Source of the DNA: a virus
Virus record (IMG/VR): IMGVR_UViG_3300045988_175865
Location: 1-32,000 of that record
Length of the DNA stretch: 32,000 nucleotides
Strand: one strand, 5' to 3'
Notes under the pieces: model-generated
Databases searched by the model: none
What the model was told of the DNA's origin: nothing
Seen by the model: the letters and a program-made list of their open reading frames with translations, nothing else
Shown: one piece after another, positions 1-32,000 of the stretch
Position numbering within the stretch: position 1 is the first letter of the stretch
How the letters are laid out: the number at the start of each line of letters is the position of its first letter
Program-made: the position numbers and the translations under genes

Positions 1-3000
1 TTAGCACCTCTCCGTTAACTATTAATAACATAGATCAAGTAGATAATAAACTAGGATTAAAATTAAATACAGAAACTGATTCTACTCCTGATTTTTACAT
101 CGGAAATAATGGACAGTATTCAAATATGTTAAGACAATTTCGAGCTAAATTAATCGAAAGTTCTATATTTAATAGATATTCTGGAGAGTTTATTAATGCT
201 AATGAAAAGAAACAAGAATTTGATATCACTTTTTTAAATGATTCTATTTTAAATTATAAAAAAACATTAGCTTCTAATATTTCAAAATATTTAGGTAATT
301 CTGAATCTATAACATTAAATTTAGAGAATCTTACAGATTTTGATAATAAAGTTTCAGAAATATTAACTAATTTTGAAACTGTGTTTAATTCAGAATTAAT
401 TGATCGTAACAGTGCTTTTAATAACGCATATGACGCATATGTAATTTTAACTCAGTTTGATAAGTTATTGCAGAGTGAGATTCCATTTATTACTATTAAT
501 CCAAAATATACAAAGACGAATTCGTCTTATGTAGATCGTTATATATATAGAGGTCCTAATGTAATACACTATACTGGCTTTAGTACTAATGAAGATACAA
601 ACGCGGAAGACCATGCTAGTGATTTATCAAAAATATTGTTAGACTACTTTCCTGAAGTAAATGCAGTTGGTTTAGAAATAGATAATACTAGTATTACTTT
701 AACAGGATTTAATTCTGTAATGACAAAACTTATTAAGACTATTCAAGAAAATGAAAATTTAATAGAATATCGTTCAGAATTAAACAAAGGAGTTAAAGCA
801 GATATGTCTGTGTTAATAGACGCATATATAAATAATATACTTTCAAACCGAATTATATCTAAAAATTATAGAACATATTTATTAGATAAATTACGAGGTA
901 TTAAGAAATTTATATATTCGCCTCAAATGTCTTCTGAAATAAAAGCTATGTTTACTCAAATGGCTTTTAAAACAGTGCCATCGCAATATACAGCATATGG
1001 CTTTGATCCACAAAAAAAGACAATTGCTAGCAGAGATTTAAAAGAACGACCAGTATCGCAGCAAGCATACGATATTAGAAGTTTAATTCAGGCATCAGGT
1101 TTTTATTGAAGATCTAATCCTGATTTATTTAAAGAAAAATTAAATCAGTACGGAATTACTATAGGTAATGATAGAATTGTTATTGAATCTATTATAGATA
1201 ATATACCTATTACATTTACTATTACTTATGAATTAAATCAAAATGGCAAAATGATATATAGATCGTTTGGAGAAATTAATGATCAATCTTTGAACAATCT
1301 GATATATAACTTTATGTCTTTTATAATTCCAGAAAATATAGCTGAAATTATTCCTCAGGTATATCCTGTTGAAAAATATACAAAAACAGAACTATTTGTT
1401 CCATTATTAGCTACGACGTTATTAGATGGAAACAATAGTGATATTTTAACTAAAGAACACGATCTTGTTAATTTAGTTCCATTTACAGAAGATATATGAA
1501 AAGTAGCTAATGTATTAAGTGTAACAAATGGTTCGGATACTATTAATATTATTAAAAATGCAGAGGGAAATAACTTGCCATTATATCAAATTATTAGTTT
1601 GGTATATAATCATAACGAAATATTTGATAGACTAATTAATCCACCTACAGAAACAATTGAACATCCAAATAATGTAGCTGCACATAATTTAATAGTACAA
1701 AATATTGAAAGCGGTTTTTTATTATCTCCTAGAATTCGATCGGATATAAACATTAATGGAAAAATTAAAAAACCTGCTAATTTAAAAGTTAGTGAAGTTG
1801 CAAGATTATCTATCATGCACGATTTTTATCAAAATCTAGTAGATAATTTAGAGGGATTAATTTATTTACAACCGACTACTTTTTCTGATAAAAATAAACA
1901 TTTTCTAATAACATATAATATAGGTAAAACCATCAATACTTCTCTAGGAGAAGTAAACATTAAAGAAATTTTAAATAACTATTTAAAAGGAGATGGAACT
2001 TTAGATCCTTTATATCATCTTTTAGGAGAAACTAGAAAAAACCAAATAAATGCATTAGTTCAGAATATATTGTTTGACTATAGTCTTGCTTTTGATACAG
2101 AATTTACATCATTAGAACAGATTGATGAATTCATTGCGAAATATAATCACAGTTTAAAAAGTATTCAATCTGCATTTAATGCTAAGGGAGTTGATTTCTT
2201 TTTAGATATACATGCATATAAAACTGCCTTAAGTAAATACCCTCGAACTAACGAAACTATTAAAAACTTTTTTAAAGTCTATAATGATCAAAATAAAACG
2301 TTAGAACGTTTAGATAGAGAAAAAAGAAAATTCCTAAAGGACTTACTTGTAAATAACTTTAATTTAAATATTAATCAGGATAGTTTTATTTCTCAAACAT
2401 TTAATAAACCTGAATTTAAATCATTAGTTAATAAAAGAAATGGAGAAATTACATTAGCTGAAGTAACTGATGAAAAAGGTAAAAGAATTAATCTCAATAA
2501 AATAGTTGATTTTGATGCTTTACTTAATCTAAAATGAAAAGTTAAACTAAATCCCATTTTAGAATCATATTTTATTACTGATACTCTATTATCAAATGAG
2601 TATAATAATATGATGATAGGAGGTGTTTATGCACATCCGAATAAAAACAAAGACGGAAAGTTAGATAGCAAAGAATATTTTGAATTTAGTGAAGCTAATC
2701 GACTAATTGCTCAATATAAACGTATGGTAATATTTGGAGCTACTTATCATCCATTTGCTCAAAATTTAGAAAATGGAGTTGCTTCAAATATTAAAATTGC
2801 TGTAATTAACGATGAAGCGGGAACAGCCTGAAATATGTTAGGAGATGAAAATACTGGATTAGATACTATGGATGGATCTGGTTTATCAAGTCCACTTGAA
2901 TCTAGAGCAGAAAATAATTCACTCTTAGATGCAAGAGTTGGGCGCGATAAAAAAACTATTATGCATGATATCGATTCTCGGTATGGTAGACCAACTTTAT

Positions 3001-5537
3001 TAAAATGGGCTGTTTTTGATATAAGTAATGAAAGAAGACGCATTTCTTATGGTTCAGATATTTCATTAGAAAATATCTTTAAAAAAATGCATAGTATTCC
3101 AATTAACAAATCTATTATTTTAGAAAATTATTATAATATATTTGATCCTATATATTTTAAAGATATTCGAACCAATAAATATTATAAAATAAATTCAATC
3201 AAAACGATTTTAGATCCGAATGGATTAATTGAAGTTGCTAGAGATCTAACTGAAGTTGAATCTAATGGATTAGAAACAAACAATACTATTCAGACAACTC
3301 ATATAATAAATACATTATACGATATTGATCAAGTATTTGGTGGATCTTGAGCAATGAAATTTAATGAAGACATAAATCGTTTAGAATATTCTGAATCTAA
3401 TATTGATATACTTGAAAATATCGTTAACAAAGAGCAATTAAAAGATAAGTTTATTGCTTATTTAGTTAATAAATCTGCAATCAAAGTTGGAGCAGGAAAT
3501 ATAAATGATTCAAGTAAATGAAGTAACTCTGATGCATTTACTACTATTGAAATGTCTACTAAGTTTGGAGGAGTTCAAATGAACGCTGATCACCATTTAG
3601 ACATGTCAGAGGTTACCGAAATGACGCAAATGATTAGTGCTTTAGAGCAAAATGGATTTACACATGAGTTAGTAACTCAGATTTATAAAGAAATTGGTCA
3701 GATTGTTAAAGAATCCATGAATGATTTGTCAGAAACAATTAAAGCTAAAGATAAAGATCAACTGTATACTATATTAGGTAGATCATTAATTAAAGCTTTT
3801 ATGAATGATGACAAAGATACTTTAGGGTTAGCACAATCATTTGTTTATTTAGCTAATGAAAGTTTTAAAAATGCAAATTTAGATTATAAACTACCATTTA
3901 GCGCAGCAACAATTAATGGAGCTTTTATTGCTACTACAACATCTAACTTAGTTAAAAGTGGAATTAGACGTAAATATTCTGGTATAGCATCTGTACTAGT
4001 TCCTTCTCATAATATGATTCAATACTATAATATTGATGGACTTAATTATCAGTATGAAGAATTATATAATTTAGTAAATACAAAAGGTATTGATCATTTA
4101 TACGATGAAAACGGAAATATTATAAAAAGTAAAGTTGAACGTGCTTTAACAGAACCTATTATTGATGGAGAAATAAATCCTTTTATAATTCCAATTGAGC
4201 CAAATGATATTGATTTCGAAGATACAATTGTAATATTTAATGAAGAAGATAATCCTACTGTTATTAAAATTGATTCCTTAGAGAAATACTATTTATATAA
4301 GCACCAAGCAACCTTAGGACAACAATATTATAACTGAACAATTAAACCTAAAAATCTAAAACAGTCAAATACATTTTTTGATGTAGTTGTAGGCTTAGAT
4401 GGATTTGGAAATGAAATAAATAAACGTTTTAGTATATATGACTTAGATGCAGTAAGAGCATCTTATTATTTAAGTTCTCGTAGAAAACAATTAAAGAACT
4501 GGGAGGATTTAACAGAGTATGAAAAAACATTACTATCATCTGCATTAGGTTTACATCCAATCGATAATATACAGTTAAACATAGATAGTCTATTATCTGA
4601 TTTACAACAAAAGATACAATTACAACTAAATAGTTTAGCTGACAATCAATCTATTATTAATAATACTGCTTTTGGTATTACTAATCCAAATGTTAGAGTT
4701 GTTAAAGTATCTAATGTTAATGTTACTCCAACTCAAATTGTAATGGGGAAAAGGCAAGCTCAACAATTTGGATTGCAAAAAGGAGACTCTATTGCTCAGA
4801 TTAGACAAGAAAAAGAAAATTTCTTTTATAATCGAATGCAAAGTAACTATAATATTGGAAATCCAGATAAATTAACATATGATATTATATTATTTGATGG
4901 AACAGGAAAACAATTCTATGTAAAAGTTTTAAGAACAGAAGAAGTTCCAAAAGCATTTACAGGTAGTATTACTCCAAATCCTGATTTTAAAATTATTGAT
5001 AATATTGTATACTATAATGAAAAAGAATTTTCAACAAATGATGAGAAACAATTTTATAAGTATACAGATACAAATGGAAATATTCATGATTTAATTATTA
5101 TAAATTCTATAGATAGATTAGGTGAATTAAGAAAATCAGGATTAATTAATACATATCAATTTAATTATACTAGCGAAAATACTAAAAAATTATTACCTTA
5201 TCAATTTCGTTATAATATAGAAAATAATATTCCTATCACTTTACATACCAGAGATAGTGAAGGAAACTTGCATGAAGCTAAAATCAATCCAACAGCAGAT
5301 ATTAGTTACGTAAGTTTAAACCAAAATGAAATATATAACTTTAATCAAAGAATAAAACAATTAGCGTTTAATCAATATGAAGCATTTGAAAAGTCTTTAC
5401 TTCATGTAGGTACTCGCATACCGTCACAATCAATGCAGTCATTTGCTCCTATGGAGATTGTAATGTTTACAGATAGTGAAGTAAATGATGTTTATGTAGC
5501 TAAAGTAGTTACGTGAATGGAAGGCTCCGATTACGAT
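1..5537 (+). CDS. Giant virion-type protein, exon 1 (5' end outside window). Ends in a beta-prime-like DPBB catalytic domain of a single-chain crAss/YonO/QDE-1-type RNA polymerase.
   Basis: One frame (codon starts divisible by 3) is open from nt 3 to 5537 if the in-frame TGAs at 1107, 1497, 2535, 2829, 3348, 3519, 4335 and 5514 are sense; there is no in-frame TAA/TAG. Seven ORF-track pieces (126, 1251, 1575, 2610, 2835, 3552, 4743) share this frame. RIPSQSMQSFAPMEIV...VVTWMEGSDYD (5415-5537) resembles RNAP beta-prime RAPTLH..QAFEPVLI...NADFDGD. Confidence 0.75.
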
Positions 5538-6465
5538 AAACTTATCATGTCGTATTAAAACTCTTTTAATTGCTGGAAACTCTGACCGCGTTATGGCGAA
5601 GACAATCAGCAGCCAAGCCATATAAAAATGGAAGGTTCAACGACTAATATTAATAACTTAATAATTCGACTTTAATAGTATGAAACAGTTAAAAACACAT
5701 TTAAATAAAATAGGAAGAAATTTAATAATTGCTATGTCTATAGGGGATGGGCATATAGCTAAAAAAGGATATTTAGATATAAATCATTGTGAAGCTCAGA
5801 AAGAGTATTGTTTATGAAAATGGCAACTTTTAAAAGATAATGGAGTTAAAGTTGGCACGTTTAGAGAATGAAAACAAATAAATGGATATTCTAAAGGTAA
5901 AGAAGTAACTAAATATGGATTTCAAACAACAGTACTTGATTTTTGTAAAGTACTTAGACGAGTTGAATATGAGTACGGAAAAACTAAATATAATAAAAAG
6001 TTACTTAAGCGACTTGGAGCTCAAGGGTTAGCAATATGAATAATGGATGATGGAGCATTACTTCGTAGATCTAAAACAAATAAAGATGGAATACGAACAT
6101 ATTCAGGATTTTATATTACAATATCTACGTATTGTCCATTAGAGCAAGCTAATGATATTATAGAATATTTTAATGAAGAATGAGATATTTATCCGACTAA
6201 GGTTTTTGATAAAAGGCAGCAATCCTATATAATTAATTTTTGTGCCAGAGAAGGTAGAAAATTAATAGAAATTATAAAACCTTATATGTGTCCCCACATG
6301 ATGTATAAGGTTCTTCCTGATAAAATAGAATGTGAAAACTACATGAAGTTATTAAAAGAAACAGCTGAAACTGCTGTTGAAGGTACACTAGAAATAGTGG
6401 AAATGGAGAGCGCGAAAGCGAAGATATAGTCTGATCTATATAGAAATATATAGTTAACACAATTG
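5538..6465 (+). mobile_element. Group I self-splicing intron 1 (928 nt) with an internal LAGLIDADG endonuclease ORF
   Basis: P1: exon UACGAU (5532-5537) pairs with intron GUCGUA (5549-5554), with U.G at the splice site. Core elements are AAUCAGCAGCC (about 5605-5615), GGUUCAACGACUA (5634-5646) and AAGAUAUAGUCUGA (6421-6434). A GAAA-capped hairpin CUAUAUA/UAUAUAG follows, and the intron ends AACACAAUUG with a terminal G at 6465. The host reading frame shifts across the insert, and splicing restores it. Confidence 0.85.
5680..6429 (+). CDS. LAGLIDADG homing endonuclease (double-motif), encoded in intron 1
   Basis: ATG at 5680, TAG at 6427. Motifs are LIIAMSIGDGHI and GLAI-W-IMDDGAL. There are four in-frame TGAs (5815, 5869, 6037, 6180), one at the conserved Trp of the second motif. 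The 3' end overlaps the intron P7 core. Confidence 0.88.
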
Positions 6466-7077
6466 ATAGATAAACAATATATCCTTGGCTATTCATTATC
6501 ATCTAATGGTCGTATTCATACTGATGAAAACTCAGCACCTTATTTACGAGCTGATGCATTAAGAAATAGAGTTGTAGATGGTGTATTTAGTATTATTCTT
6601 AATCCTAGAAACCAAATTAACTTAACAATGCCAGTAACTACTGATCGAATGCAAAGTCTTGCTAAAAGATCTAAAATGGGTGAAGCTGCTAAATATATGA
6701 GTCCTTACAATCCAGCAAGTAAGTACTTAATGCAGATTCAAAATATGGTTGGTAAAGCAGTTATTGGTAATGTTGCTACGGCATTAAAAAGTTTCTTTGC
6801 CTTAAGCAACGTATATAATACCAAGTTTAGAGAGATTAATGAAGCAATTCAAACTGGTAATTTTGATATAGCTAGAACGATGTTAAAAAGATATACATTT
6901 ATCCATAATGATAGACTAATAACATTAGCTAATGTTAATATGGAAGTATTTGAGAGTCTACCTGAAAATACTCCTGAAGATATTAGACAAACTCTAGCTC
7001 AAGTAATTAGTTATGAGGATGCCTTAGATGATCAATCTATGGTACTTGGAGAACTTTTAAATAGTGCTACTGATTTT
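6466..7077 (+). CDS. Giant RNAP-like protein, exon 2
   Basis: Starts IDKQY..., completing GSDYD|ID. This is the ORF-track 6463 frame, open to about 7077; beyond that the translation becomes a hydrophobic run (FFIRKLLNNLPILIFIIIFAL*) typical of intron read-through. The 3' boundary is uncertain by a few nt. Confidence 0.65.
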
Positions 7078-8372
7078 TTCATCAGAAAATTATTGAATAA
7101 CTTGCCTATATTAATTTTTATTATTATCTTTGCACTATAGATAAAAATAATTTAAAACAAATTAATATGGCAAAGAAATTAACAAATGAAGAAGTTGAAA
7201 AACTTCATAAAATGTATTTAGAAGGAATGACTTGTGAAGAAATTGGAAAACTTACAGGTCATAAAACAGAAACAGTATCTAAATATCTAAAAGAGAATTA
7301 TGATATAAAGCCTCAAAGAAAAATTGATTTAGTAATTTTATCAAAACTAGCAAAAGAGGGAAAAACAACTAAAGAAATGGCAGAATATTTTAATGTACAT
7401 CCTTCTGCTATATGCTATTGAAAAAAGTATTTTAATGAAGGAGATCTAAAGATTTCGCACCCTTTTTTGCAAGAAGATCATCAATTATCTCATCTACAAG
7501 AACAAATGATTCTTGGCAGTTTATTAGGAGATATGAACATAGGAAAACCTAGAAAACATCATCCTACTTGTAGATTATCCTTAGTACACTCAATTAAACA
7601 AAAAGAATTATTTATGAAGAAAGTAGAAATTCTTGGAGAATTTATGAGTAATTATAGAGAATATAGTTATTTAGATAATAGAACAAATAAAATATATTCT
7701 ACTATAAGAGGAAATAGTAAATCTCATAAAGTATTTAATGATATGTATAATAAACTATATATTAATGATATTAAAACAATTACTAAAGAATATTTAGATA
7801 TGATTAATCATCCAATAGCATTAGCTTACTGATTTATGGATGATGGAACGAATTCTGGACAAATAGCTACAAATTGTTTTTCTTTTGAAGAGGTTAAATT
7901 ACTATCGAATTGACTAGAAAACAAATTTGGTATTATTACAACAATGCACAAAAATTTAAGAAATTATACTTTATATATAGTTGCTAGCTCTAGATTTGAA
8001 TTTGATAATTTAATTTCTCCTTATATTATTCCTTCTATGAAATACAAATTAAAATTTTCTGAAATAGCAGAGTCAGTTAACTCCGTGAAAACGGGAAAGC
8101 CCTTAGAGATTTAAATACTAAACTATTATAGTAATATGATAGTGGCTAAGCTAATCACTTAGATATAGTAATAAGTTTAAATATTGGGTAATCCGTTACT
8201 AAGCTTCCTAATAGGAAGAAAGTTCAACGACTATCGAAATGCAGAAATGACAGAGTAGAGTAGAACTTAAGTAAGTTCGAAGTGCGGAGATCCTGTATAG
8301 GATAAGATATAGTCTGAACTCATAGGAAACTATGAGAGAACTTATGGAAACGATAAGTTCGTAACAAAATTG
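7078..8372 (+). mobile_element. Group I self-splicing intron 2 (about 1.3 kb) with a 5'-located HTH-LAGLIDADG ORF
   Basis: The structured 3' core (8115-8372) contains GGGUAAUCCGUUAC (about 8186-8199), AGUUCAACGACUA (8221-8233) and AAGAUAUAGUCUGAAC (8304-8319), then a GAAA-capped hairpin CUCAUAG/CUAUGAG. The end AACAAAAUUG (G at 8372) is nearly identical to the ends of introns 1 and 3. The 5' splice site is provisional (7074-7078): the U-run 7074-7079 can pair with GAAAAU at 7085-7090. Confidence 0.75.
7167..8114 (+). CDS. Homing endonuclease: two N-terminal HTH modules plus a LAGLIDADG domain, encoded in intron 2
   Basis: ORF-track 7167 and 7467 pieces are in the same frame and are joined by TGA at 7419. 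Further TGAs lie at 7830 (ALAY-W-FMDDGTN) and 7911. TAA at 8112. Motifs are LGSLLGDMNIG and WFMDDG. Confidence 0.85.
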
Positions 8373-10637
8373 AATGCAAAGGAATTAATCCTTAAAAAAA
8401 TTAATGCAGATACAAACTGGGTAGATATTTATACTATTTCTCTTATGTTAGGTGAATCACTAGATGAAATTGGTAATTTAATGATTGATGATGATATAAC
8501 AGAACTAGTAAATGATTTTACTACTAGTATGTTTAGTGATGAACAGAACTATGATAAAGTTCGTTATGTTGCTGATAAAGCATATACCTCTGAAGGAGAG
8601 AAAAAAGAGAAATATCTACAATTGCTGGATAAAGTTATATCTGCGGATGAAGTACGTATCTTAGGAAAGATACTTAAAATTAATCAAGGTCTTCCTACAA
8701 ACACTTCTGATTTATATAGTTATATTAAATCTATTGAAAAATATATAGAAAGTAGGTTTAATAGACAAATACTAGAAAAACAAGAAGAATATTTAAGAAT
8801 TGAAAAGGAGTTAGAAAAAACTTGATTAACTCCTGAAAAGAAGGAAATATTAAAAGAGGAACGAAGATTACAAAAAATATATCCAGAATTAGAAGAAGGG
8901 TCTTCATTATATAATTTCTATAATAAATACAATTTAATATATGAAGATATAAATGGTAATATTAGACATGGAGATTTAGAAGCCAAACTTGGTAAACCTA
9001 AAGAAGCTATAAAGGCTAGACAAGATTACTTTAAGTCTAGAAAAGAAATGGCTAATATCTGGCAATCTTTTGACTTAGTTAGATTTATTACCGATCCAAT
9101 CTACAAACAGGAAAGTATTGAAAAATATGAACAAAATAAGGTTAATTTTAATATTTTGGAAGTAATCAGTGCAGTTCCTCATTTTAGAGAAATGTTTAAT
9201 GTTCTTGCAATTAACAAAAGTGTTCTTAATAGTTTATCATCTAGAAATAGGTTAGAAGATATAATTCTAAACCAACTTAGTAGGAACTTTGCTGGAGTTC
9301 GTATGGATGTAAGCAAACCACTAAATAAACTTGAAATTAGAACTATAAAAGATCAGATAGATAAGTATCTTATTAGATCTTGGATTATTAGTAAAGGAAT
9401 TGAAATAAATGTTCCCGCTAGTCCTAAGAATCCAGCTCCTTATATATTAAGATTGGATAATGAAAATAATATTAACAAGTTTAGAAGTTATGTTGAAAAC
9501 TACGCTATTCCTTTATTAAAGGATAAGTTGAAAAATAATAAGTTTGTTCAGCTATTAACTTTTGGACTAAGACAAGGAGTTCCATTCTATAAGCTACCAC
9601 TTAACATGGTTCAAGTTGATAACACTCAGAAGACTAGGGCTTTATACGAAGAAGCATTATATGCTTTTAATAACCTTAATAAGGTCAAAATAACTGGTAT
9701 AGATATGAACTTAGTGGATATGTTTTATCTATATAACTTAGTTGTTAATCAAGATAAATTTGGTCCTAATTCTATGACTAGGATATTTGAAGACTTAGTA
9801 TCATCTGGTAATGAAGATCTTCTTATATATGATTTTAATAATTGAATTGATAGTCAAAATATTGAAGACTTAGTTAACAGATTTAGAACAGAAGAAAATA
9901 GTATTAGGTTTAATTTAGTAGAATCAACTCCTATTGTAGATGACACAAATTCTGATATTGGATTTAAAGAAACTCCTTTAGAAGAGGATATTGAAGAGGC
10001 TCAATATGAAGAATTAGCAGATAATCCTGTTAAAGAAAATAATGAAGTAGCTGAATATTATCAAACTAACCCTTCAACTAAATCAAAACTTATAACAATA
10101 ATTAAAGAATCTAATTTAAAAGGACTTCACATAGTTACAGATTCTGATTTAGTTAATGAAGATTCTACTACTAGAAATGCTAGGGGATTTGTGAAGAATG
10201 GTGAAATCTATATTAATGTAGATAGAGCCGAAGATGATACAGTAGTCCATGAATTTAGCCATTTATATTTAGCAGATGCTAAAGTAAATAGTCCTAATGA
10301 ATACTATTCAGTACTAAGTAGAGTTAGAAATACAGGTACTTGGAAATATATGAGAGAGATACCTGAATATCAAAATAAAAGAGGATCTGATTTTGATGAA
10401 GAGGTTCTAGCAACTTTAATTGAGCGAGCATATAATGAGGGATTAGGAGGAGCAGATTATGATGTTGCAATAGATGCTCTGAATCTTACATCTCCAGAAT
10501 TTAAATCATTTATAAAATCTGATATTCTACCATCATTAGGAGAGACATTAATAGAGAATTATAAGGTATCTCAAAAGATAGCTACACTTAAAAATAAGCT
10601 CATCAAAGATAATATTATTAAAGAGGATTGTAAATAA
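8373..10637 (+). CDS. Giant RNAP-like protein, exon 3, with a C-terminal zincin-like HExxH module
   Basis: ORF-track pieces 8370, 9048 and 10191 share one frame and are joined by TGAs at 8823 and 9843. HEFSH lies at 10248-10262 in the context GFVKNGEIYINVDRAEDDTVVHEFSHLYL. TAA at 10635-10637. Confidence 0.7.
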
Positions 10638-13600
10638 TGGAATGTACATATGAAACTACAATAAACGGTAAGAAGATAAAGTTCAGCTCCGAAATGGAGC
10701 TGGACAACTTCTTATCAAGTAAATTAGCAGATTATCAAATAAACGAATCAGATTTAACTTTTCAAATTAATCCTATAGATAGTACTATAGAGAAGGTAAA
10801 TGCTATTACAAGTAAAGTTAAAAATGCTTCTATAGAATCTGTAATTATAAATGATGATGGAGATTCAGAAACTATACTTAAGATTCCTGACTCAATAGGT
10901 ACTACTAGATTTATTACATCTAATGGGGATCCTTCTAATATGCAAAAGGAATTAGTTCCTCCTTTTAACTTAAATGATTTCTTAAAAAAAGAAAGAGAAA
11001 GATTAAGTGCAGAAGGAATGACTAAATCTCAAATTGATTCATATTTAGAAAAGTTACAAAAGTCTTGAACTCAGTTAACTGATTATGGTACTGAAATACA
11101 TTCCTTATTTGAAAGTATTATTAATAATACTACATTCAAACCAACTAATTTGAGTGAAGAACAGGTATTACGTTTAACTGAAGAATTTAAATCCTTTATT
11201 GAAGATATTAAATCTAAATATGGTAAAAATGCTAAAATCTTAACAGAAGTTCCTATAATATCAGATAAAATTCATGAAGCATATCAATCAGAAGGAATTA
11301 AAAGTATTAATGGTAGAATTGATATGCTAGTTATTGACCAGAGAGGATTTGCTCATATTTATGATTTTAAAGTTTCTAGAAAAGAAGTAGGAATATGAGA
11401 GGATACTAGAAACATACAAGGATCAACTACATGGCACTCTACTAAAAAACGTTCTGTGGGGTATCAGTTAGGAATATATAAGAATATTCTAGCACAATAT
11501 GGCATTACTGTAGGAGAAACAAACGTTGTTCCTATTAAAATAGATCCAGAATATAATGAAGATGGAACTATTAATAAGCTAAATGATGCTTATATTGATT
11601 TTACTAAAATAAAAGTAAATCCTAATGCTCCATATACAGAAACTATAAATACTATTCTTCCAGTAAAAACATTACTTGATGATATTGATCTTATAAACTC
11701 AATTCAGGAACCAATGACTAAATTTGTTCCTAATTATGCAGTAGAAACTCAGGTACAGAGAAATACAGTTACTGTGGATAAATACATTAATAATCCTAGA
11801 ATTGTACACTATATTGATGACACTGACCCAGAACGAAAGTTTGGAAAATACTGAATTTGGAATAAATATAAGAAGAATCGTAAAGTATATGCTAAAACAG
11901 AGGAGGAACTCAGAGAAAAAGTACAAGAATTAGTAAATGAAGAAAATAAACATATTCACTCTGAAATGTCTACCTTAGCGGATACCATTCAACAAATTAT
12001 TGAAGGATATGAATCCATTGATGACTTAGCTGCTGATAACCCATTTAAGTCTGATTATTGTAAAAAGATATTTAGAAAATATTTAGTAAAAAAGAGTGAA
12101 ACTGACTATGGATGAACTTTTCAAAATAATCCTAAATTTATAGCTGCAGGTATATTTGTATTTACTAAGGATGGTAAAATGGAAATAATATCTGTTACTC
12201 ATAATGATATTCATTCAGTTGTTAATTTAGGTCTTGGCAAATCTATTCAAGGAGCAACTAAAAAGGATAGTGATATTGATAGTCATGTAATAATGCAAGC
12301 ATCTAACGGTAATATTGACCTTGTTAAAGTTATGTGTTTATTAAATAATATGCCTGAGGTACTTAAAGGATACAAAGTTAATAAAATAGAATCACATAAT
12401 ATTTGAATTCAAAAAGGTACTGAGACCTATTTAGAAACTCTTTTAGATAATTTTTCTGAATTATGCAGGATACATGGTATTACCAATAATCTTACATCTC
12501 AAAATTTTGCAACAACATTAGAAGCAGCTGTAAATATAATAAGAGATACTGCTGGTGAAGAATTACTATCTCACATGGGTAATTGAGAATTTAATTTTAG
12601 TCCTAATGATATTGTAAATGGAGTTCCATTCATCTTGCAGAAAATGGAACAACTAAGAAAATTAAAATCTGCAGATGGCCTTCGTACTGCTTTAAGAGAA
12701 GGCAAATGAAATTTTGATGATCCTATTCAGCTAGCATATATGTTATTAGGCAGAGCACTAAATAAACTTAACGGATACTCTATTTATATTGAACAAGATC
12801 CTAAATTGTGAGTAAATTTTTCTAGGGAAGGATGATACACTGGTTCATATGTGAATAGTGCTAGTAACTCTTCTTCTAAAAATATTCAAACATTAAGTAA
12901 AATATTTTCAGTAGCAGAAGCTCATATTAGAAGGAAAGAATTATCATACAAACCTAGGATTAGTAAAGTAGTTAAGGCTTTATATGAATACAATCACAGA
13001 AATAGACTTATTGGAGGTGAGGTTAAGTTTTTTGATAACTTATTTGTTAAGGATACAAACGGTAATATAGATAAATCATTTAGACTAAAAAATCCTTCAG
13101 ATAGTAGTTTGGCTAAGGAAGAATCTGACTTTATTAAGATGTTTCTAGAGATAGTAAATGATTTTAGATTTGATGGTAATCAAAGTAAAATAGCTAAAGC
13201 CATTGAAGACGGTTCTTACTATGAAGTTCCTGTTTCTATGGGAAGTACATCTACTCAAATCCACAATAAAGGATATAAACAAGCCTTTACATCTAAATAT
13301 AATGAAGCTTTAAACTTTCTAAAACTTCTTCCTGAACAAGAGCAACAATTTAGGGAATCAAAAGGAGAGCCAAAGGTATATAATAAATATAGATTAAATG
13401 GACTTAGTAGATCTGATTTAATTGAAAATTATGGGATAGATGGTCTAGAAACTCAACTTGAAGATTTGCTATTAAATGTCATCCATACATACACAATGGA
13501 AGAAGTAATGAATGAATATCTTCCCAGACTTCAAGGTATTAAGATTGCCTTACAATATCAAACTGGGATGTTTGGAGTAGTTACTGATCATGTTTTAGAA

Positions 13601-20343: not shown

Positions 20344-21495
20344 TTACGGTATTAATACAGTTATTCCTGGAAACTTCTGAGATTTATTCCCATCAGATGT
20401 AATAATCCAGATTAAGTTTTTACAAGTTGAAAATGTAAATTTAGATAAGTAACCATCAGTAAATATCACACAAGAACTAAATTCTTTGTGTTCTTTATAG
20501 AAGTCTAGAGCTGGGCAAACATCAGTACCTCCACGACCAATAAATTCAAATTTACTTTTTTTATCATATTTACATATCTTAGTGATATTAGTATCACACT
20601 CTATAATTGTTATATCTACACCTGTTTTATATATATGATTAACTTCAGATATAAAATTAGAAAAGTCATTCATATTTATAGAACCTGAAGTATCAATAAC
20701 AACACATATGTTTGGTTTTCTTTTTAAACGAGTTCCTCTAGCATCAGGTAATCTTTTTGAAGGTCTCATCCTAGTTAATTGTAGATCACTACTAATAGAA
20801 TCTCCAACTACTCGTCTAAAATAGTTTCTCCAGTTAAAAACTGGAGGATTATTTCTTATTTTTTCAAGTATTTCTTTTAATTCTCCAGGTATGTGGCCTA
20901 CTTGTTTATTAACAAGAGCTTCTGTTTCTTTTAACTTAGACTTTACTTGATTTTCATATAATTTACGTTCGGCTTCCGATATATCTTTAGGCCACATATC
21001 ATGATTATCTATACTTTTAAAGTCGGCTAATCCTTCAGTACCAGGGATACATTTTTCAGGGTGTTCTTTAACAAACTTTTGTATTTCATTATAATAATAC
21101 CACGCCCCTCTATTGGGCTCTAGGTTCTTTCCAATTAACTTAGAAAGATTCTGTAAAGTAACACACCCATCAGGCAATCCTGTAACTATTTGGTTCACAA
21201 CTACATCTGTTGCTATATTCATATTATCATGATTATCTGCTTTGAAATCATCAGTAAGATGAAATAAACATATGTGTACTAACTCATGGGTGAGCACAGC
21301 AATACATTCAGTATCAGTAAGGTTATTCCAAAATGTTTCATTTACATATAATGTAAAATTGATACCATTAGGACCTACAGCAGCTGTTTTTACAGGATGA
21401 TTATCACTAACAATCTCCTTGCGTAGATTTAGCAAGAAAAGTCCATAAAAAGGTTGCTGAATAAGAAGCTCTTTACATGCTTTAATTAATTGCAT
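20344..21495 (-). CDS. vWA-domain protein with an N-terminal putative metallopeptidase domain (DUF2201-like); partner of the AAA+ ATPase
   Basis: HExxH in LTHELVHICLFH. MIDAS DxSxS in VVIDTSGSINMND. It lies immediately upstream of the ATPase on the same strand. No TGA. Confidence 0.75.
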   Translation of the reverse strand: MQLIKACKELLIQQPFYGLFLLNLRKEIVSDNHPVKTAAVGPNGINFTLYVNETFWNNLTDTECIAVLTHELVHICLFHLTDDFKADNHDNMNIATDVVVNQIVTGLPDGCVTLQNLSKLIGKNLEPNRGAWYYYNEIQKFVKEHPEKCIPGTEGLADFKSIDNHDMWPKDISEAERKLYENQVKSKLKETEALVNKQVGHIPGELKEILEKIRNNPPVFNWRNYFRRVVGDSISSDLQLTRMRPSKRLPDARGTRLKRKPNICVVIDTSGSINMNDFSNFISEVNHIYKTGVDITIIECDTNITKICKYDKKSKFEFIGRGGTDVCPALDFYKEHKEFSSCVIFTDGYLSKFTFSTCKNLIWIITSDGNKSQKFPGITVLIP

Positions 21496-22251: not shown

Positions 22252-22279
22252 ATTACCTAAGCCTCATCGCTCTTGAAAT

Positions 22280-22735: not shown

Positions 22736-22804
22736 CTTCTATATGTTATATTTTAGCTGTCATCTTTAGATAATTTGATGTTAGTACTTGATAATATATC
22801 TTCT

Positions 22805-23044
22805 TTATCTTTTGTTAAGTTTAAATTTACCACAACGTAAAGAACCACTAAGCCCTAAATCTAAACTACCATAAACATAAGATTTATAGAAACTTCCATA
22901 TGGGTTAGCCTCAAGACTCCAATCCTCTAAAGCTCCAATCTGATACATAATACTATCTATATTATCAATAGGAATCATCGGTAAATCTAATTCTCTATTA
23001 CTAGAATTGAGAAATTCTTCTATTAGTTGTTTAATCGTTTCCAT
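22805..23044 (-). CDS. Hypothetical small protein
   Basis: ORF-track ORF that overlaps the thyX stop by 14 nt. Confidence 0.45.
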   Translation of the reverse strand: METIKQLIEEFLNSSNRELDLPMIPIDNIDSIMYQIGALEDWSLEANPYGSFYKSYVYGSLDLGLSGSLRCGKFKLNKR

Positions 23045-23945
23045 CTAATAAGTTTCTTTTAATAAACTCTTCTTTTAAAGGAATAGCTAGTTCCTGAGCC
23101 TGAGGATGAGCTGCTTTATCAGTTCTAAGTTTAAAGAATCCTCTCCACTGTTCAATAGTACCAGTCATAATTAATTCTGTTTTTGTGCACAATGGAAGAA
23201 TTTCTCTAGCCTCTTGAGCTTTACAACCTCTGTTAATAAGAGCTTTATAATTCACTTCAGCTGATTCACACTGAGATAAGAAAATGTCAACAGAGTCTCC
23301 TTCAAAATGTTTTAGTATGGTATTGGGAATATTATTTTTATCTGCAGCATCTACCCAATCGTTATCCCAATATTGATATCTAGCCTCCTTTAAATCAGTC
23401 CAATAAGGAATAATAAACGTAAGTTCGTTATTAAATTTATCGGAATTGTAATTGCAATATCTTGTTGATTGTTCCGCAAATGATAACACGCGATGGCGAC
23501 AAAACTCACGACTTATAGAAATTGGAAGAATAAACTTTACTGTAATTCGTTTTTCATGATATTCAGTAGGTTCACAGAGATGTTTTAAATCGTCAAGCCA
23601 GCCATTTTCATATAAAACTCTGTAATTAGTTGTGATATGATAATTACCATAAGAATCTGTATTAATAACTGAGTAAGAATTAGAAAGGTATTGTTTAATT
23701 ACCCAATTATCACCTATTATATTGGAAGCATGATCCTTATGAATATAAAGATATACAGTGCCATGTTCAAGCATTGCGGTATGCTGTCTATCCTTAATCA
23801 TATTAACAAACTTCTCTGCAGAATCTTCTGTAATACGATCCTCTGACTTATAACATGTTCTTCCTGCTCTTTCAATTTGTTTATATATTCCTTGAATACC
23901 TGGCTCTTGTTCTAAAATTTCAAAACTACTTTTAATAAGTTTCAT
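23031..23945 (-). CDS. thyX: FAD-dependent thymidylate synthase ThyX
   Basis: ThyX signature RHRVLSFAEQSTRY (RHRxxSxxxxSxR), plus the N-terminal AGRTCYKS and HTAMLEHG blocks. 304 aa, no TGA. Confidence 0.9.
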   Translation of the reverse strand: MKLIKSSFEILEQEPGIQGIYKQIERAGRTCYKSEDRITEDSAEKFVNMIKDRQHTAMLEHGTVYLYIHKDHASNIIGDNWVIKQYLSNSYSVINTDSYGNYHITTNYRVLYENGWLDDLKHLCEPTEYHEKRITVKFILPISISREFCRHRVLSFAEQSTRYCNYNSDKFNNELTFIIPYWTDLKEARYQYWDNDWVDAADKNNIPNTILKHFEGDSVDIFLSQCESAEVNYKALINRGCKAQEAREILPLCTKTELIMTGTIEQWRGFFKLRTDKAAHPQAQELAIPLKEEFIKRNLLDGND

Positions 23946-23953
23946 ATAATTAT

Positions 23954-24549: not shown

Positions 24550-24560
24550 TTTATTATATA

Positions 24561-28265: not shown

Positions 28266-28266
28266 A

Positions 28267-28713
28267 TTATAGCTCATCTAATTCTGTTTGTAACATTTCA
28301 GGATAATATTTCCGATAAAACATTCGAATTGTATCTTCTCCTACCTGTAAATCCCTATTTTTATCCCTTTTAATAGCTTCATAGTATGGGATAACTATTT
28401 CCTTATATTGAATATTTGCATTGAATTTAGACGCTATTTCTTCCCATTTAGCCTTAGTTTTAGGATTAAGATTAGTGGCATCAATAACTACATTATATCC
28501 ATTAGTTAAAGCCTCTTCAATCATTAGTTTTTCATAGATACTAATTAACTTTTCTCTAGAAGGTACCCAATAATCTCCACACATTAATCTAATATCATCC
28601 CGATTTATTCTAATCCAAGTACTCTTATCTTTCACAAATTCTTTTGCAAAATAGGTTTTACCAGATGCTGGAGGTCCAACAAGTACTAATAATATCTTAT
28701 TCTCGTCTTTCAT
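28267..28713 (-). CDS. P-loop kinase resembling the T4 polynucleotide kinase N-terminal domain (AAA_33-like)
   Basis: Walker A LVGPPASGKT, INRDDIR, and VVIDATNLNPKTKAKW. 148 aa. Confidence 0.7.
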   Translation of the reverse strand: MKDENKILLVLVGPPASGKTYFAKEFVKDKSTWIRINRDDIRLMCGDYWVPSREKLISIYEKLMIEEALTNGYNVVIDATNLNPKTKAKWEEIASKFNANIQYKEIVIPYYEAIKRDKNRDLQVGEDTIRMFYRKYYPEMLQTELDEL

Positions 28714-29206
28714 TACACTCTTTCCACATTTTGTATATAGGCTCAGAAATCGTTATAAAATCTTTAAGAGGATTAACAATTTTTCCTTTGAAAACGTCAA
28801 TTCTATTTACTTTAGATTCTTTGATAATCTGAATTCCCCATAAACATTCTCTGGTAATATCCATATCTATATTAGGTAAATCCTTATTTATACCTTGTAA
28901 ATAAGTTACCCTGGCAATAATATATCTTCTAAGTTTAATAATATCAGGTTTTTCATAAATATTTACATATTCTTTAATCTTACCTGATTTAGAAAGAATA
29001 GAACATACATACGGTAACAAACTACCAGATTTCATTCTTAAAAATCAATCATCTAAGCTAAAGAATGTAACATTATCATTTTTAGAAGTTATATTATCTC
29101 CAACAACAATATATTCATAACCTTCTTCATAAAAAGAACAAGGAATCTTATATATAAATTTGATATCCTTGTTCTCTTTTAGTTGCCTTATTTCTTCTTT
29201 AGTCAT
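28697..29206 (-). CDS. Hypothetical protein
   Basis: ORF-track 28697..29035 extends through one TGA to the ATG at 29206 (170 codons). Confidence 0.5.
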
Positions 29207-29553
29207 TATACTAATGCATCAAATTCTCCAGGAACTGCTAAAATATCTTCAATATTCTTTTTAACATAATCCTCAACCTTTATAGTTACTAAACCTACAA
29301 CTTTTAATTTAATTTCATCTGGGATGAGGTAGGTAAAAATAATAGTATTACGGTTATCTATTCTTTTATATAGTGATAAATAAACATTTGGTATATATTC
29401 TTTATTTTCATCTAACATAAGAGAAAATTCTATAGAGTAAACTTTATTTTTTCTTAGAATTATACTCATATCTCTATATCTAATATAACCTTCTTCAACA
29501 GTTCAGGTGTTTAAAATAGTAAGTATTTGTTCGTTTGTTAACATATTATTCAT
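29206..29553 (-). CDS. Hypothetical protein
   Basis: ORF-track 29206..29469 extends through one TGA to the ATG at 29553 (116 codons). Confidence 0.45.
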
Positions 29554-29653
29554 ATATCTATAGTACTTTATTAAGTTCTTCGGCTCCATATTAAGAATAC
29601 TACTAACTTAAGTTTATAAGCTTCAATTTTACCAGGATCCATTAACATCTTTA

Positions 29654-30562
29654 CTAGTACTTGATTTCATTTGATACTACATCTTTTGGTACACATTTTT
29701 TACAATAAGGGCTAATCCAGCCTCTAGTTATATATTTAGCTTTGGCCCCACAACATATACATGTTCTTTCTGAAAGTTCTTCGTACGTATTAATGATAGG
29801 ATATTCACAACCATTTGGAGAACCATTAGAATACCAAGCAAGCATCCCAAACTTCTCCTTAATCTGCATAATCCTATACTTATATAGGTAATTATGCTTT
29901 TTGAGAACTTTCTTCAGATCCTTACACATCTGTATACCAAAAGCTTTCCTTCACCCAGTAGGCATATCATCTAGTTCTGTAGATGTAGGGATAAAACAGA
30001 TTCTGTTTATAATATTATCCCAAATAAAAATAATAGAATTGTACACTTTCTTATAGAACTTATCTACGCAAATTTTGAGTGTTTTAAAAGCAAATCCATA
30101 ATTATACTTTGTTATCTTATTTTTATGAACATGATATATAATATATGGATAATTAGTAAATATATTAGTAGAAGTAGTTATACCAGTAATAGTAAAGCCC
30201 TTTCCAACATGTTTCTGAAGATTAAATTCAAGCGGCGAATCAATGTATGTACTTTCAAATTTTAATATACCAGAAGGGGTTAAGTTAACATTGAAATTAT
30301 ATTTACCAACATCTCTAATGATAGAATTAAATTCAGTGCATTCTTTAGGGTCTTTATAAAATTTATATGATAAATTAATTTCAGTATAAGCTTTTTTGTA
30401 ATATTTATTACTTAATTTCACAAGCCAATTAGGACTTACTTGATGTTTGTCTGTAAATCTATTTCTAGGGTATAAAAAAGGAAATCTAATACACAAGTAG
30501 ACACACTTAGGAATTCTAAGTATCCTATTTATTTTATATTTTAATCTATGAAGGTATTTCAT
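29654..30562 (-). CDS. Hypothetical protein with a C-terminal IKEKFG motif and zinc ribbon
   Basis: ORF-track 29951..30562 and 29654..29929 are in one frame and are joined by TGA at 29951. C-terminal features are QIKEKFGMLAWY and CICCG...CKKC. TAG stop. Confidence 0.55.
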
Positions 30563-30908
30563 CTACACATTTTTTAAAATCTAAAAACATCTTATTCTCC
30601 GAATGATTTTCAAGTAATTCATCTAATGATGATGCTACATCTGAAACTAATTCAGAATTAGGGTCAGAAAGGTAATCATATAGCTCATTAAATGTAGAGA
30701 ACTTGTTTTTATCTGAACCTATAGCATACAACCATATTAACTCAGAGTTGTATTCTCCAAAGTATAGTTCCAATAAAATACATACAGTACCACAAGCTAG
30801 TTGTTTTATTTCTATTAAATCTTTAGAGCACTTAGAATCTACAAACCGTGTTTTTTGAATGCATACTATTATAGCTAACAAATCTTCTCTGTTTAATTTA
30901 TGTTTCAT
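30546..30908 (-). CDS. Hypothetical protein
   Basis: 120-aa ORF that overlaps the downstream gene by 17 nt. Confidence 0.5.
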   Translation of the reverse strand: MKHKLNREDLLAIIVCIQKTRFVDSKCSKDLIEIKQLACGTVCILLELYFGEYNSELIWLYAIGSDKNKFSTFNELYDYLSDPNSELVSDVASSLDELLENHSENKMFLDFKKCVDEIPS

Positions 30909-31049
30909 TATATATCAATTTTATATTTTAAAGTCTTCATAATAAGTAGTTAGGAATAGGCTTATCTGCGGCAGTATAATTAAAATATTTAATTATTACT
31001 AGCTTTATATCTGATTTCGTCCTTGCAGTATCTCTTAAATAAATTAGTA

Positions 31050-32000
31050 TTAAGTATTATCATCCTTTTGATATATAATTAAATCACTTGTAGTACGACT
31101 ACAGGCTACATATTGTAACTGCCGAAGTTCTTCTTTATTTGTACATCTCCAGATATTCTCCATATCTATCATTACAATAGAATATTGAGATGACTGTGAT
31201 TTATGAGTTGATATACAATATCCATAATCTAGTGATTTACGTTTAATTATCCTATTATCGTATCTTATATCAAAAGTAGTTAAAAATGATTCTGATAAAT
31301 CATAATATTTACGCCATAAAGCATTAACTCTTTTTTTATATACATTATTCTTATCAGCATTAACCGTAGATAACCTAAGTCATTCTAACCTATAAGCTAG
31401 ATTATTAATATTTTTTTCTGAATTATCTTTAGATAATACTATTACTTTAAAAGTAGAATCATCTGATTTTAACCCTAATTCCCAAGCATTTAATTCTAAA
31501 TACTTAGTTTTATTTACTGATGTTATAATATAATCACGAGAATTTTCTATTTTTAATCCTAAATAGTTAGTTGTGTCATAACCTGTTAGAACTTCTCCAA
31601 CAACAAATTCTTCTTTATATCCTAAATATTCTCTAATTAATTTATTTAATGCTTTAATTCTATTATTAGTATAAGAAACTAATTTTATTAAATTAGAATC
31701 ACTAAAATCTTTAGATATTTTAAATAAATAACTATACTTTTTAAGCATTTGTACAATATTGTTACATACTGTAATATTAGAATAATCATCAGAAATGCTT
31801 TTAAATTTATATAATGGCTTTTCTCTTAAATAATTTAATACTTTAGATAAACAACTTTCTTTTTGTCTATATATCTTATTTAGATAAATTGTTCTATTAC
31901 TAAATGCTTTAGAAGGTTTATTTTCTTTTACAGAATAAAGCTGTTTAGGATCTCCTACAAATACTATCTTTGATGACTTATATTCTTTTAATAGTAAATC
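31050..32000 (-). CDS. SF1B RecD/Dda-like DNA helicase (C-terminal part; N-terminus outside window)
   Basis: Open to the window edge. IVFVGDPKQL (motif III) lies near 31940. One TGA at 31380. ISTHKSQSSQYSIVMID (motif V) and LQYVACSRTTSDLII (motif VI). TAA at 31050. Confidence 0.8.

Follow-up and report, generated by a model that had tools for sequence, protein, structure and literature searches.

TGA-to-tryptophan recoding in a common human-gut phage and a candidate intron-split tRNA-Trp(UCA) in its relatives

Introduction

In genetic code 4, UGA is read as tryptophan (Trp) by a tRNA-Trp with a UCA anticodon. Ivanova et al. are said to have reported stop-codon recoding in gut phages in 2014, a finding grouped with the lytic-stage switch of the code. 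Group I introns are found in the anticodon loops of bacterial tRNAs, namely the cyanobacterial tRNA-Leu(UAA) and tRNA-fMet, the latter with I-Ssp6803I. For the Zeta group of crAss-like phages, TGA-to-Trp recoding, a giant RNA polymerase gene disrupted in its DxDxD motif, a high density of introns and the swapping of PolA and PolB have been published (PMC7886860; PMC12386605). A suppressor tRNA is detectable in only ~35% of TGA-recoded phage genomes (bioRxiv 10.1101/2021.08.26.457843), and several opal-recoded Zeta genomes are given without one (PMC12386605). In crAss-like phages with TAG recoded to Gln, metaproteomes have reportedly been searched for peptides across the recoded codons (PMC9523058). 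For phages without a detectable suppressor, the published surveys leave open whether they rely on the host, have undetectably divergent tRNAs or use other means. Here we describe a stretch of 32,000 nucleotides (nt) of a viral genome (positions 1 to 32,000 of IMG/VR record IMGVR_UViG_3300045988_175865; the whole stretch is called the window below), in which TGA interrupts otherwise continuous reading frames, together with an intron-split tRNA gene with a UCA anticodon in related contigs.

The window is the junction of a late 'transcription' block on the plus strand and a replication block on the minus strand of a ~166 kb human-gut phage. Its features match those of the Zeta group of crAss-like phages, to which the phage probably belongs; the placement is made from genome size, the intron-broken DxDxD polymerase, intron density, polymerase swapping and TGA-to-Trp recoding. 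The size range of Zeta-group genomes from the human gut, 145-192 kb, includes the gut contigs of 164-170 kb that carry the window sequence. TGA-to-Trp recoding itself has been reported before in phages of this type (PMC7886860, PMC12386605, bioRxiv 10.1101/2021.08.26.457843). What is added here is the candidate intron-split tRNA-Trp(UCA), which lies outside the window and was read in relatives.

Results

TGA as a sense codon

Under the standard bacterial code (translation table 11), the open reading frames (ORFs) of the window are only 80-390 amino acids long. If only TAA and TAG are taken as stops, the longest frames reach 1,852, 1,468 and 775 codons; making TAG or TAA a sense codon instead of TGA does not lengthen the top ORFs. 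After starts and exon ends were set, the long frames are 3..5537 (1,845 codons, cut by the window start), 8373..10637 and 10637..15037 (1,466 codons), all on the plus strand. TAA and TAG together make up 6.4% of triplet positions, and on this basis runs free of both over 1,845 and 1,466 codons have chance probabilities of ~1e-53 and ~1e-42, respectively. The genes of the whole window, with starts and exon ends set, contain 48 in-frame TGAs and 64 TGGs. Of the 26 complete gene ends, 21 are TAA, 5 are TAG and none is TGA.

A preliminary description of the window, made from the letters alone, had claimed more than 40 in-frame TGAs used as sense codons alongside TGG, gene ends at TAA or TAG only, and a single frame shared by all table-11 fragments of each giant gene on the plus strand. 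The counts above bear this out, and the fragments of each giant frame do share one frame. The first of the two giant genes needs correction, as it is really one gene in three exons, separated by two inserts that each combine an intron and an endonuclease ORF. The three TGAs that had been assigned to conserved Trp positions of endonuclease motifs were found at 6037-6039 (plus strand, GLAI-W-IMDDG), at 7830-7832 (plus strand, ALAY-W-FMDDG) and as TCA at 19635-19637, which is TGA on the minus strand (KAY-W-LGFIFADG). The claim that the standard code fails here is likewise sound, since table 11 breaks the genes at TGAs and re-calling with TGA as a sense codon restores long single-frame genes. The window and its very common phage are thus mis-annotated under table 11. 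The stored public gene calls on contigs that bear the same thymidylate synthase ThyX already translate through TGA.

Comparison with homologues

Every gene of the window was aligned codon by codon with relatives, comprising strains 85-100% identical and one lineage of ~53% protein identity. TGA and TGG replace each other at 28 homologous sites, 14 with TGA in the window and TGG in a relative and 14 the other way round. In the ~53% lineage, the window TGAs face 14 TGA, 8 TGG, 3 phenylalanine (Phe) codons and a few others. The spectrum of replacements, mainly Phe, is the same for the TGG and the TGA sites of the window. Taken over all alignments, the codons opposite TGA are mostly TGG, TGA or Phe, with GGA at two sites, and no protein ends there. 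The 14 TGAs of the 1,466-amino-acid gene face 6 TGG, 3 TGA, 3 Phe and 2 other codons in the 53%-identity relative, and the alignment of this gene with seven relatives shows TGA/TGG swaps among strains too. Similarly, the TGA at 5514 in RNA polymerase exon 1 faces TGG in the strains L007, L009 and L011, which lack the following intron, and the TGA at 16061 in the dNMP kinase gene faces TGG in L014.

Two further comparisons are independent of any recoded genome. The family B DNA polymerase (PolB) gene of crAssphage cr114_1 is uninterrupted, with 0 TGA and 11 TGG, and in a colinear alignment (61-65% identity) three of the four PolB TGAs of the window face a TGG-encoded Trp of this standard-code phage. 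When HE2, the endonuclease in the second RNA polymerase intron, was searched with X at its TGAs, phmmer placed X opposite the W of LAYWFMDDG in yeast I-SceI. From the frames and alignments together, TGA in this phage is a sense codon read as Trp, and only TAA and TAG end genes. Readings of TGA as glycine (Gly), selenocysteine, serine (Ser) or a true stop are not supported.

An intron-split tRNA gene with a UCA anticodon

ARAGORN with default settings found no tRNA in the window. The search was continued upstream for ~60 kb through the replication and early block of related contigs, where ordinary tRNA scans gave tRNAs for Leu (two), Met (two), Gln, Thr, Ser, Phe and Cys, with His, Asn and Lys in some strains, and none with a UCA or CCA anticodon. 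A candidate was found only with intron-aware ARAGORN at 90% thresholds, a setting that also yields doubtful calls, such as a tRNA-Stop(tta) with introns of more than 1,100 nt, which were not relied on. With this setting, a split tRNA(UCA) is predicted in every strain and in three lineages that are ~50% diverged. It is located outside the window, in a gap of 800 nt without ORFs in the early block, at a place equivalent to ~56 kb from the window.

The predicted gene has a 33-nt 5′ exon and a 60-nt 3′ exon, with the intron between positions 34 and 35. Joining the exons gives an acceptor stem of seven perfect base pairs, D and T arms, and an anticodon arm with the sequence GCGGU-CUUCAAA-ACCGU; the spliced tRNA passes the default thresholds of ARAGORN and folds as a cloverleaf. 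The predicted junction of the ligated exons is GCGGUCUU|CAAAACCGU. A 20-nt probe from the 5′ exon retrieved 44 IMG/VR contigs, including one with an unrelated tRNA-Lys and one with only a 5′ exon, truncated at the end of the stored contig sequence. Eight of the 44 carry intron-less alleles with the long arm, whose junction is exactly as predicted (CTT|CAAAACCGT), one carries an ordinary 73-nt tRNA(UCA), and in the remainder this site holds an intron of 341-707 nt. The UCA anticodon is invariant in 42/42 homologous genes. The carriers are 42 viral contigs of ~30-180 kb, most of them longer than 100 kb. No intron-less allele of the window-type tRNA was found in JGI metagenomes, and no match to the phage tRNA in E. 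coli genomes.

Comparison of 17 distinct spliced sequences showed that 7/7 acceptor pairs are kept, five of them with compensatory changes, although the intron lies between the two strands of the stem in eleven sequences. The whole covariation set of 27 pairs is 95.9% paired and has 14 double-sided changes, a result reached by 0/500 shuffles and collapsing in slid controls; the T arm and the extra hairpin also covary. The intron-less allele L065 scores 60.4 bits on the Rfam tRNA model, with the UCA arm as the anticodon arm. A 26-nt probe spanning the D arm and the anticodon arm, with N at position 34, matched at least 120 bacterial genomes, and all the matches listed have C34 and are called tRNA-Trp(CCA) by ARAGORN. 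The sole difference between the phage tRNA and the bacterial tRNA-Trp(CCA) over this 26-mer is C34U. The 5′ and 3′ halves each match annotated phage tRNA-Trp genes, and the discriminator G73 is invariant. The split gene is tRNA-Trp-like with a UCA anticodon, and its product would be a candidate decoder of TGA.

Two other models of the locus were rejected. The 3′ part alone, taken as a contiguous tRNA-Trp(CCA), has three acceptor-stem mismatches and scores 20.3 bits on the Rfam tRNA model, below the threshold; this model is rejected because the distant 5′ exon instead pairs perfectly and covaries. An intron between positions 26 and 27 would give an ordinary tRNA-Trp(CCA), but the intron-less alleles keep both hairpins.

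The variable region of the tRNA is a hairpin of 26 nt in the window-type allele and of ~24-27 nt across alleles. Its stem covaries at five pairs, and its 7-nt loop, CUCCAAA, is invariant; the T loop is more variable. CUCCAAA is the anticodon loop of tRNA-Trp. It is as if a tRNA-Trp had two anticodon arms, one mutated to UCA and bearing the intron and the other, the second, keeping CCA. The second hairpin may be a relic of a duplication, a mimic for recognition by the tryptophanyl-tRNA synthetase (TrpRS), or something else. The closure of its loop is a C-A mismatch in the window-type alleles and U-A, G-C, C-G or U-G elsewhere (L033 7218-7920; alignment A1 columns 48-66).

The tRNA intron follows U34 and has G as its last base, and its 3′ hairpin with a GAAA loop covaries. 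ORF-less introns contain AGAGACTAAATG...CTGATATAGTCC (the core string is also given as AGAGACTAAATG...GATATAGTCC), which we take to resemble the R and S core elements of group I introns. The Rfam group I model does not match the tRNA introns at E values up to 1-10. The intron appears to be group-I-like and would be self-splicing. The endonuclease ORF within it varies by strain, being of the HNH type or, by eye, PD-(D/E)XK-like. Both ORFs contain in-frame TGAs, so that their production would depend on the tRNA that they interrupt. Differing ORFs at this one site are seen in L033, L029, L040 and L027, and L040 has an intact PD-(D/E)XK-like ORF, which in L033 and L031 is disrupted by a nonsense mutation or a deletion.

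A transfer-messenger RNA (tmRNA) gene is present in some strains only, the others lacking it at that place (L042 8417-8840, on contig 175444, and L046 8377-8780; 72.9 bits with Rfam). Its tag is unusually long, with 27 residues (AKNTVRKMANKVMPLATPMRAQVAFAA).

Uneven use of TGA among the genes

The ratio of TGA to TGG is 8/2 in RNA polymerase exon 1, 14/6 in the 1,466-amino-acid gene and 10/1 in the three endonucleases together, and 0/8, 0/5, 0/6, 0/4 and 0/3 in the TGG-only genes for the MoxR-like ATPase, the DUF2201 protein, ThyX, orf151 and an AAA_33 kinase. This heterogeneity among genes has a permutation p of ~1e-5. The plus strand has 31 TGA and 12 TGG compared with 17 and 51 on the minus strand (Fisher p 1.5e-6). 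The preliminary description had the recoding run across the window; the recoding holds, but its uniformity was overstated, as the ATPase, DUF2201, ThyX and other genes are without any TGA. In the late giant genes and the three endonuclease ORFs, Trp is mainly encoded by TGA, and use is mixed in much of the replication block, where PolB, the dNMP kinase and the primase have TGAs too.

One set of genes keeps TGG even in lineages that are ~50% diverged. All eight Trp sites of the ATPase are TGG in 13/13 relatives, the ~53%-identity lineage included. The retention of TGG despite high A+T points to selection against TGA in certain genes. Such avoidance is expected if these genes are read while TGA still terminates, and not if the host natively reads TGA. 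In the ATPase and DUF2201 pair, 13/13 Trp codons are TGG, and the rare non-TGG codons at these sites in relatives are never TGA. The endonuclease HE3, lodged between the two genes, uses TGA for 3/3 Trp.

In contig 175444 (IMGVR_UViG_3300045988_175444), whose flanks of the polymerase module are 95-97% identical to the window, TGA accounts for 21% of the Trp codons upstream of the tRNA gene (15 TGA and 57 TGG), for 45% in the early block downstream of it (65 and 80) and for 63% in the late block (33 and 19). This gradient fits a switch of the code after the tRNA is made. A comparison of coding density on the 44 tRNA loci was uninformative, as the loci lie within the TGA-poor early region.

Introns, giant genes and polymerase modules

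The G+C content of the window is 27-28%, and the coding strand changes near 15,050, the left part being encoded on the plus strand and the right part on the minus strand. Searches with Pfam and PHROGs identified three LAGLIDADG endonucleases, a homologue of translation initiation factor IF3, a dNMP kinase, a MoxR-like ATPase, a DUF2201 peptidase/VWA protein and ThyX, and further a family B polymerase in two pieces, a PIF1/UvrD-type helicase and a PD-(D/E)XK region at the start of the 1,466-amino-acid protein.

The RNA-polymerase-like gene occupies the beginning of the plus-strand part. Exon 1 (3..5537, its 5′ end cut by the window) has eight TGAs (1107, 1497, 2535, 2829, 3348, 3519, 4335 and 5514) and two TGGs, with the first half of the DxDxD motif (...GSDYD) at its end. 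Intron 1 (5538..6465), which is group-I-like, is inserted inside this motif and contains the LAGLIDADG endonuclease HE1 (5680-6429; Pfam LAGLIDADG_2, E 9e-19; 4 TGA, among them the one at 6037, and 1 TGG). Exon 2 (6466..7074; IDKQYILGY...LNSATD) has no Trp codons. The group-I-like intron 2 (7075..8372) contains HE2 (7167-8114; Pfam LAGLIDADG_2, E 4e-34; 3 TGA, among them the one at 7830, and 0 TGG), a LAGLIDADG endonuclease with a helix-turn-helix (HTH) domain. Exon 3 (8373..10637) has 2 TGA and 4 TGG and ends with TAA. The spliced product has 2,802 amino acids, and its frame contains no internal TAA or TAG. A PDB sequence search with the polymerase core gave no match to solved structures.

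Both introns are polymorphic among relatives. Intron 1 is present in L014 and missing in L007, L009 and L011, where the alleles read ...QTWLQGSDYDIDKSY... and encode GSDYDIDKSY without interruption. Intron 2 is missing in L014, where the frame is continuous. Each intron is preceded by T at the 5′ splice site and has G as its last base. A shorter, ORF-less insert is found in L007 (~7109-7353), after ...LGEL and a few codons upstream of the site of intron 2 (...LNSATD); the two sites differ, and neighbouring but distinct insertion sites are thus in use. The exon 1 protein is only ~40% identical to every relative fetched, including contigs that are 93-97% identical in DNA from position 5385 on. 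This divergence suggests that an allele was replaced or that the putative virion polymerase has a hypervariable module.

The second giant gene (10637..15037, plus strand) encodes 1,466 amino acids, with a PD-(D/E)XK-type nuclease region at the N terminus (phrog_298 exonuclease, E 6e-8), and has 14 TGA and 6 TGG.

PolB is encoded on the minus strand in two exons, at 26516-27538 (4 TGA and 1 TGG) and 25204-26130 (0 TGA and 2 TGG), which match the phrog_1252 profile in two pieces (profile positions 50-357 and 359-654). They are separated by an ORF-less, group-I-like intron of ~385 nt (~26131-26515, boundaries good to a few bases) within motif A (DIDVA|ALYPS). This intron contains AATTGCGGGAA, AATCCGCAGCC, GTTCACAGACTA and AAGATATAGTC, including strings that resemble the group I core elements P, Q and R; AAGATATAGTC occurs near the 3′ end of all three inserts (introns 1 and 2 and the PolB intron). 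The exon ends set by protein alignment are GCG|...|GCA, which do not follow the rule of U before the intron and G at its end. The Rfam group I model RF00028 gave no match in the window at E up to 0.1, and Rfam found no RNA family in it. Intron-less alleles of the insertion site exist for RNA polymerase introns 1 and 2, for PolB (in cr114_1) and for the tRNA (the eight alleles above). We describe the inserts of the window as group-I-like from boundary rules, presence/absence polymorphism, endonuclease ORFs and core motifs that resemble the group I consensus. In a related strain, the Rfam group I model does match another intron, with 69.5 bits, and at L024 4539-4758 a group I intron is recognised by Rfam. 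The ribonucleotide reductase gene, which lies just past the right end of the window, is broken by two inserts (L016 6291-10609), whose ORFs are by eye LAGLIDADG-like in one and HNH-like in the other.

Contig 175444 has PolA and a GIY-YIG ORF in place of PolB. The swapped module corresponds to window positions ~22300-27700 and to 58384-60884 of that contig, and the DNA identity of ThyX and its neighbours falls to 77-80%.

The remaining genes are all on the minus strand. The IF3 homologue (15105..15611; 168 amino acids, no Trp codons) has both domains (Pfam IF3_C 1e-32, IF3_N 3e-9) and is 67-77% identical to proteins of sister lineages on 165-175 kb contigs. It provides context for a translation theme, and any part in recoding would be conjectural. 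It is followed by the dNMP kinase (15801..16496; Pfam DNMK 2e-16; 3 TGA and 1 TGG), the MoxR-like AAA ATPase (17716..18801; phrog_1297, 1e-24; 0 TGA, 8/8 Trp as TGG), the HTH-LAGLIDADG endonuclease HE3 (18942..20135; 3 TGA and 0 TGG), which lies between two genes, the DUF2201 metallopeptidase/VWA-like protein (20344..21495; identified by Pfam; 0 TGA, 5/5 Trp as TGG) and ThyX (23031..23945; Pfam Thy1; 6 TGG and 0 TGA). Further replication-block genes at 28697..32000 have one in-frame TGA each (29047, 29505, 29953 and 31382), and this region includes a PIF1/UvrD-like helicase truncated by the window end.

An exact copy of the window ThyX protein occurs in 715 blocks of an assembly collection, on contigs of 164-170 kb from gut metagenomes in ENA and from IMG/VR. 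Six ThyX-bearing contigs are ≥99.66% identical to the window over the overlap.

Discussion

The observations suggest a scheme in which the phage itself changes the code. The infected cell would start with TGA as a stop. The agent would be the early-block tRNA, ~56 kb from the window, with a tRNA-Trp body, G73 and UCA, which was read in relatives and is presumed for the exact strain. Its intron would remove itself as a group I intron, and TrpRS would charge the spliced tRNA with Trp. The charged tRNA would compete with release factor 2 (RF2) at UGA, so that genes bearing TGA would be fully translated only after the tRNA has accumulated. In the ~95 kb examined, no release-factor gene or RF2 inhibitor was recognised. 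We consider this whole explanation, with TGA read as Trp after a phage-made switch by an intron-split tRNA-Trp(UCA), to be probable.

Several points weigh against it. The tRNA is not inside the window, and its region was read in contigs 85-100% identical to the species group of the window rather than in the exact source contig. The structural block of ~70 kb lies beyond the ~95 kb examined and could hold another suppressor, a TrpRS or a release-factor gene. Splicing of the tRNA, its charging with Trp and suppression at UGA are predictions from sequence. The Rfam group I model matches neither the tRNA intron nor the window introns, and a variable region of 26 nt is unprecedented for tRNA-Trp and might alter its identity. 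TGA-containing genes also lie upstream of the tRNA gene, and timing by gene order is not clean. Finally, the clues to the host conflict. The nearest cellular relatives of IF3 are proteins of Alistipes and Tidjanibacter metagenome-assembled genomes (56-57% identity), pointing to Rikenellaceae, whereas the tRNA backbone matches, among the matches listed, the tRNA-Trp of Acholeplasmatales, Izemoplasmatales, Anaeroplasmataceae and some Candidate Phyla Radiation (CPR) bacteria; neither is a direct link. Except for Gracilibacteria among the CPR matches, these host candidates are all standard-code groups.

It is unlikely that the host itself has a code-4-type code, for example as a Mollicutes-like gut bacterium, and that the phage mirrors it without any switch. 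The very low G+C would fit such a host, as would TGAs in early, replication and late genes alike and the 26-mer that differs only at position 34 from the tRNA-Trp of the bacteria named above. Erysipelotrichaceae hosts have also been predicted for opal-recoded Zeta phages that lack a suppressor (PMC12386605). However, TGA is conservedly avoided despite A+T pressure, as in the ATPase with 8/8 TGG in 13 relatives, and five genes together use TGA in 0/26 Trp codons (P ~4e-7). Moreover, the phage has its own tRNA(UCA), the bacterial matches listed (at least 120) are all CCA, Acholeplasma-type lineages are standard-code, and IF3 points to Rikenellaceae instead.

Readthrough by a near-cognate host tRNA-Trp(CCA), after the phage has disabled or outcompeted RF2, would leave the split tRNA as a relic or with another role. 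The low share of recoded genomes with a detectable suppressor (~35%; bioRxiv 10.1101/2021.08.26.457843), the documented decoding of UGA by variants of tRNA-Trp(CCA) (PMC13092985), the CCA loop in the second hairpin and the other translation items of the phage, IF3 and in some strains tmRNA, are compatible with this. However, the split tRNA is under purifying selection, with exons that are identical or covary over ~50% divergence while introns and endonuclease ORFs turn over, and its UCA anticodon does not vary in any of the 42 homologous genes. No candidate inhibitor of RF2 was identified in the ~95 kb. Readthrough in the absence of a dedicated phage tRNA is quite improbable.

There is very little chance that TGA specifies another residue, whether Gly (code 25), selenocysteine or, through the long variable arm, Ser. 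Two TGAs face GGA, and one, where conservation is poor, faces AGT; the class-II-like long variable region is a feature recognised by seryl-tRNA synthetase; and ARAGORN labels the tRNA 'SeC', purely from the anticodon. These points are outweighed by the 28 swap sites with Phe as the main other partner and by TGA opposite Trp in cr114_1 PolB and I-SceI. The tRNA has a 7-bp acceptor stem (8 bp in bacterial tRNA-Sec), G73 and a tRNA-Trp body, and a SECIS element at each of 48 sites is impossible. That the TGAs are real stops and the 'giant genes' runs of small genes, pseudogenes or assembly errors is refuted by the frame statistics and the alignments, for although table-11 ORFs of 80-390 amino acids look plausible, all fragments share one frame without TAA or TAG over 1,466-1,845 codons (P <1e-40), protein conservation runs across the TGAs and the sequence recurs in hundreds of independent assemblies.

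The intron-split tRNA-Trp(UCA) offers a concrete answer, open to testing, to the question of how recoded phages without an evident suppressor decode TGA, at least in one widespread lineage. In full-text literature searches, no report of an intron-split suppressor tRNA in phages was found. Standard bacterial-mode tRNA scans miss such genes, and the split tRNA suggests intron-aware re-scanning of recoded phages. The chances seem evenly balanced for a more far-reaching proposal, namely that the switch of TGA to Trp in an abundant lineage depends on a tRNA-Trp(UCA) split between positions 34 and 35 by a mobile, self-splicing, endonuclease-bearing intron and carrying the CUCCAAA hairpin, possibly a TrpRS mimic; this would partly explain 'suppressor-less' genomes, and splicing could add control. 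The hairpin resembling a Trp anticodon arm may be of interest for synthetase recognition and for the engineering of UGA-suppressing tRNAs and synthetases.

Comparison with known systems

The phage resembles the Zeta group of crAss-like phages ('Echekviridae' proposed, PMC12386605; Yutin et al. 2021, PMC7886860) in its ~166 kb human-gut genome with TGA as Trp, in a giant RNA polymerase gene broken inside the DxDxD motif, in dense introns and homing endonucleases, in the exchange of PolA and PolB between near-identical strains and in a tRNA block that opens the early block. However, 0/43 of the Zeta genomes in Table 1 of PMC12386605 match it in size, G+C and coding together, and the nearest in size and G+C, ctvXz2, is given there as not recoded. 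In the Zeta papers, recoding is 'mostly in late genes' and suppressors are detected or 'not detectable', whereas here the suppressor candidate is split by an intron.

In comparison with the lytic-stage recoding switch of Borges et al. (bioRxiv 10.1101/2021.08.26.457843), the phage similarly shows enrichment in late genes and in an intron endonuclease ORF within an early gene, a group of genes that stay readable in the standard code and a phage suppressor tRNA as the presumed agent. Unlike in those phages, replication genes carry TGAs here, no 'code-change operon' with TrpRS or release factor 1 was seen in the ~95 kb examined, and the tRNA would require splicing.

Code 4, as in Mycoplasmatales/Entomoplasmatales and many mitochondria, shares the reading of UGA as Trp and the use of UAA and UAG as the only stops; its decoder, a tRNA-Trp(UCA), would have a counterpart in the candidate tRNA of the phage. 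In code 4 organisms, however, the change is genome-wide and permanent and RF2 is lost, whereas here TGA is avoided in specific genes, TGG remains in the majority (64 vs. 48) and the tRNA is viral.

The tRNA intron is like those of cyanobacterial tRNAs in its anticodon-loop site beside position 34, in U before the 5′ splice site and G at the intron end, and in alleles with a homing endonuclease ORF, some of them PD-(D/E)XK-like by eye. It differs in that its host gene is a candidate opal suppressor of a phage and that it has no match to the Rfam group I model.

The tRNA-Trp(CCA) of Blastocrithidia and bacteria with a weakened anticodon stem (PMC13092985) is likewise a Trp tRNA adapted to UGA, and the CUCCAAA loop, closed in some alleles by a C-A mismatch, recalls it. 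In those cases, the unpaired pair is the top pair 27-43 of the true anticodon stem, whereas the phage tRNA would have an orthodox anticodon arm with UCA and five pairs, its hairpin with the CCA loop being situated in the variable region.

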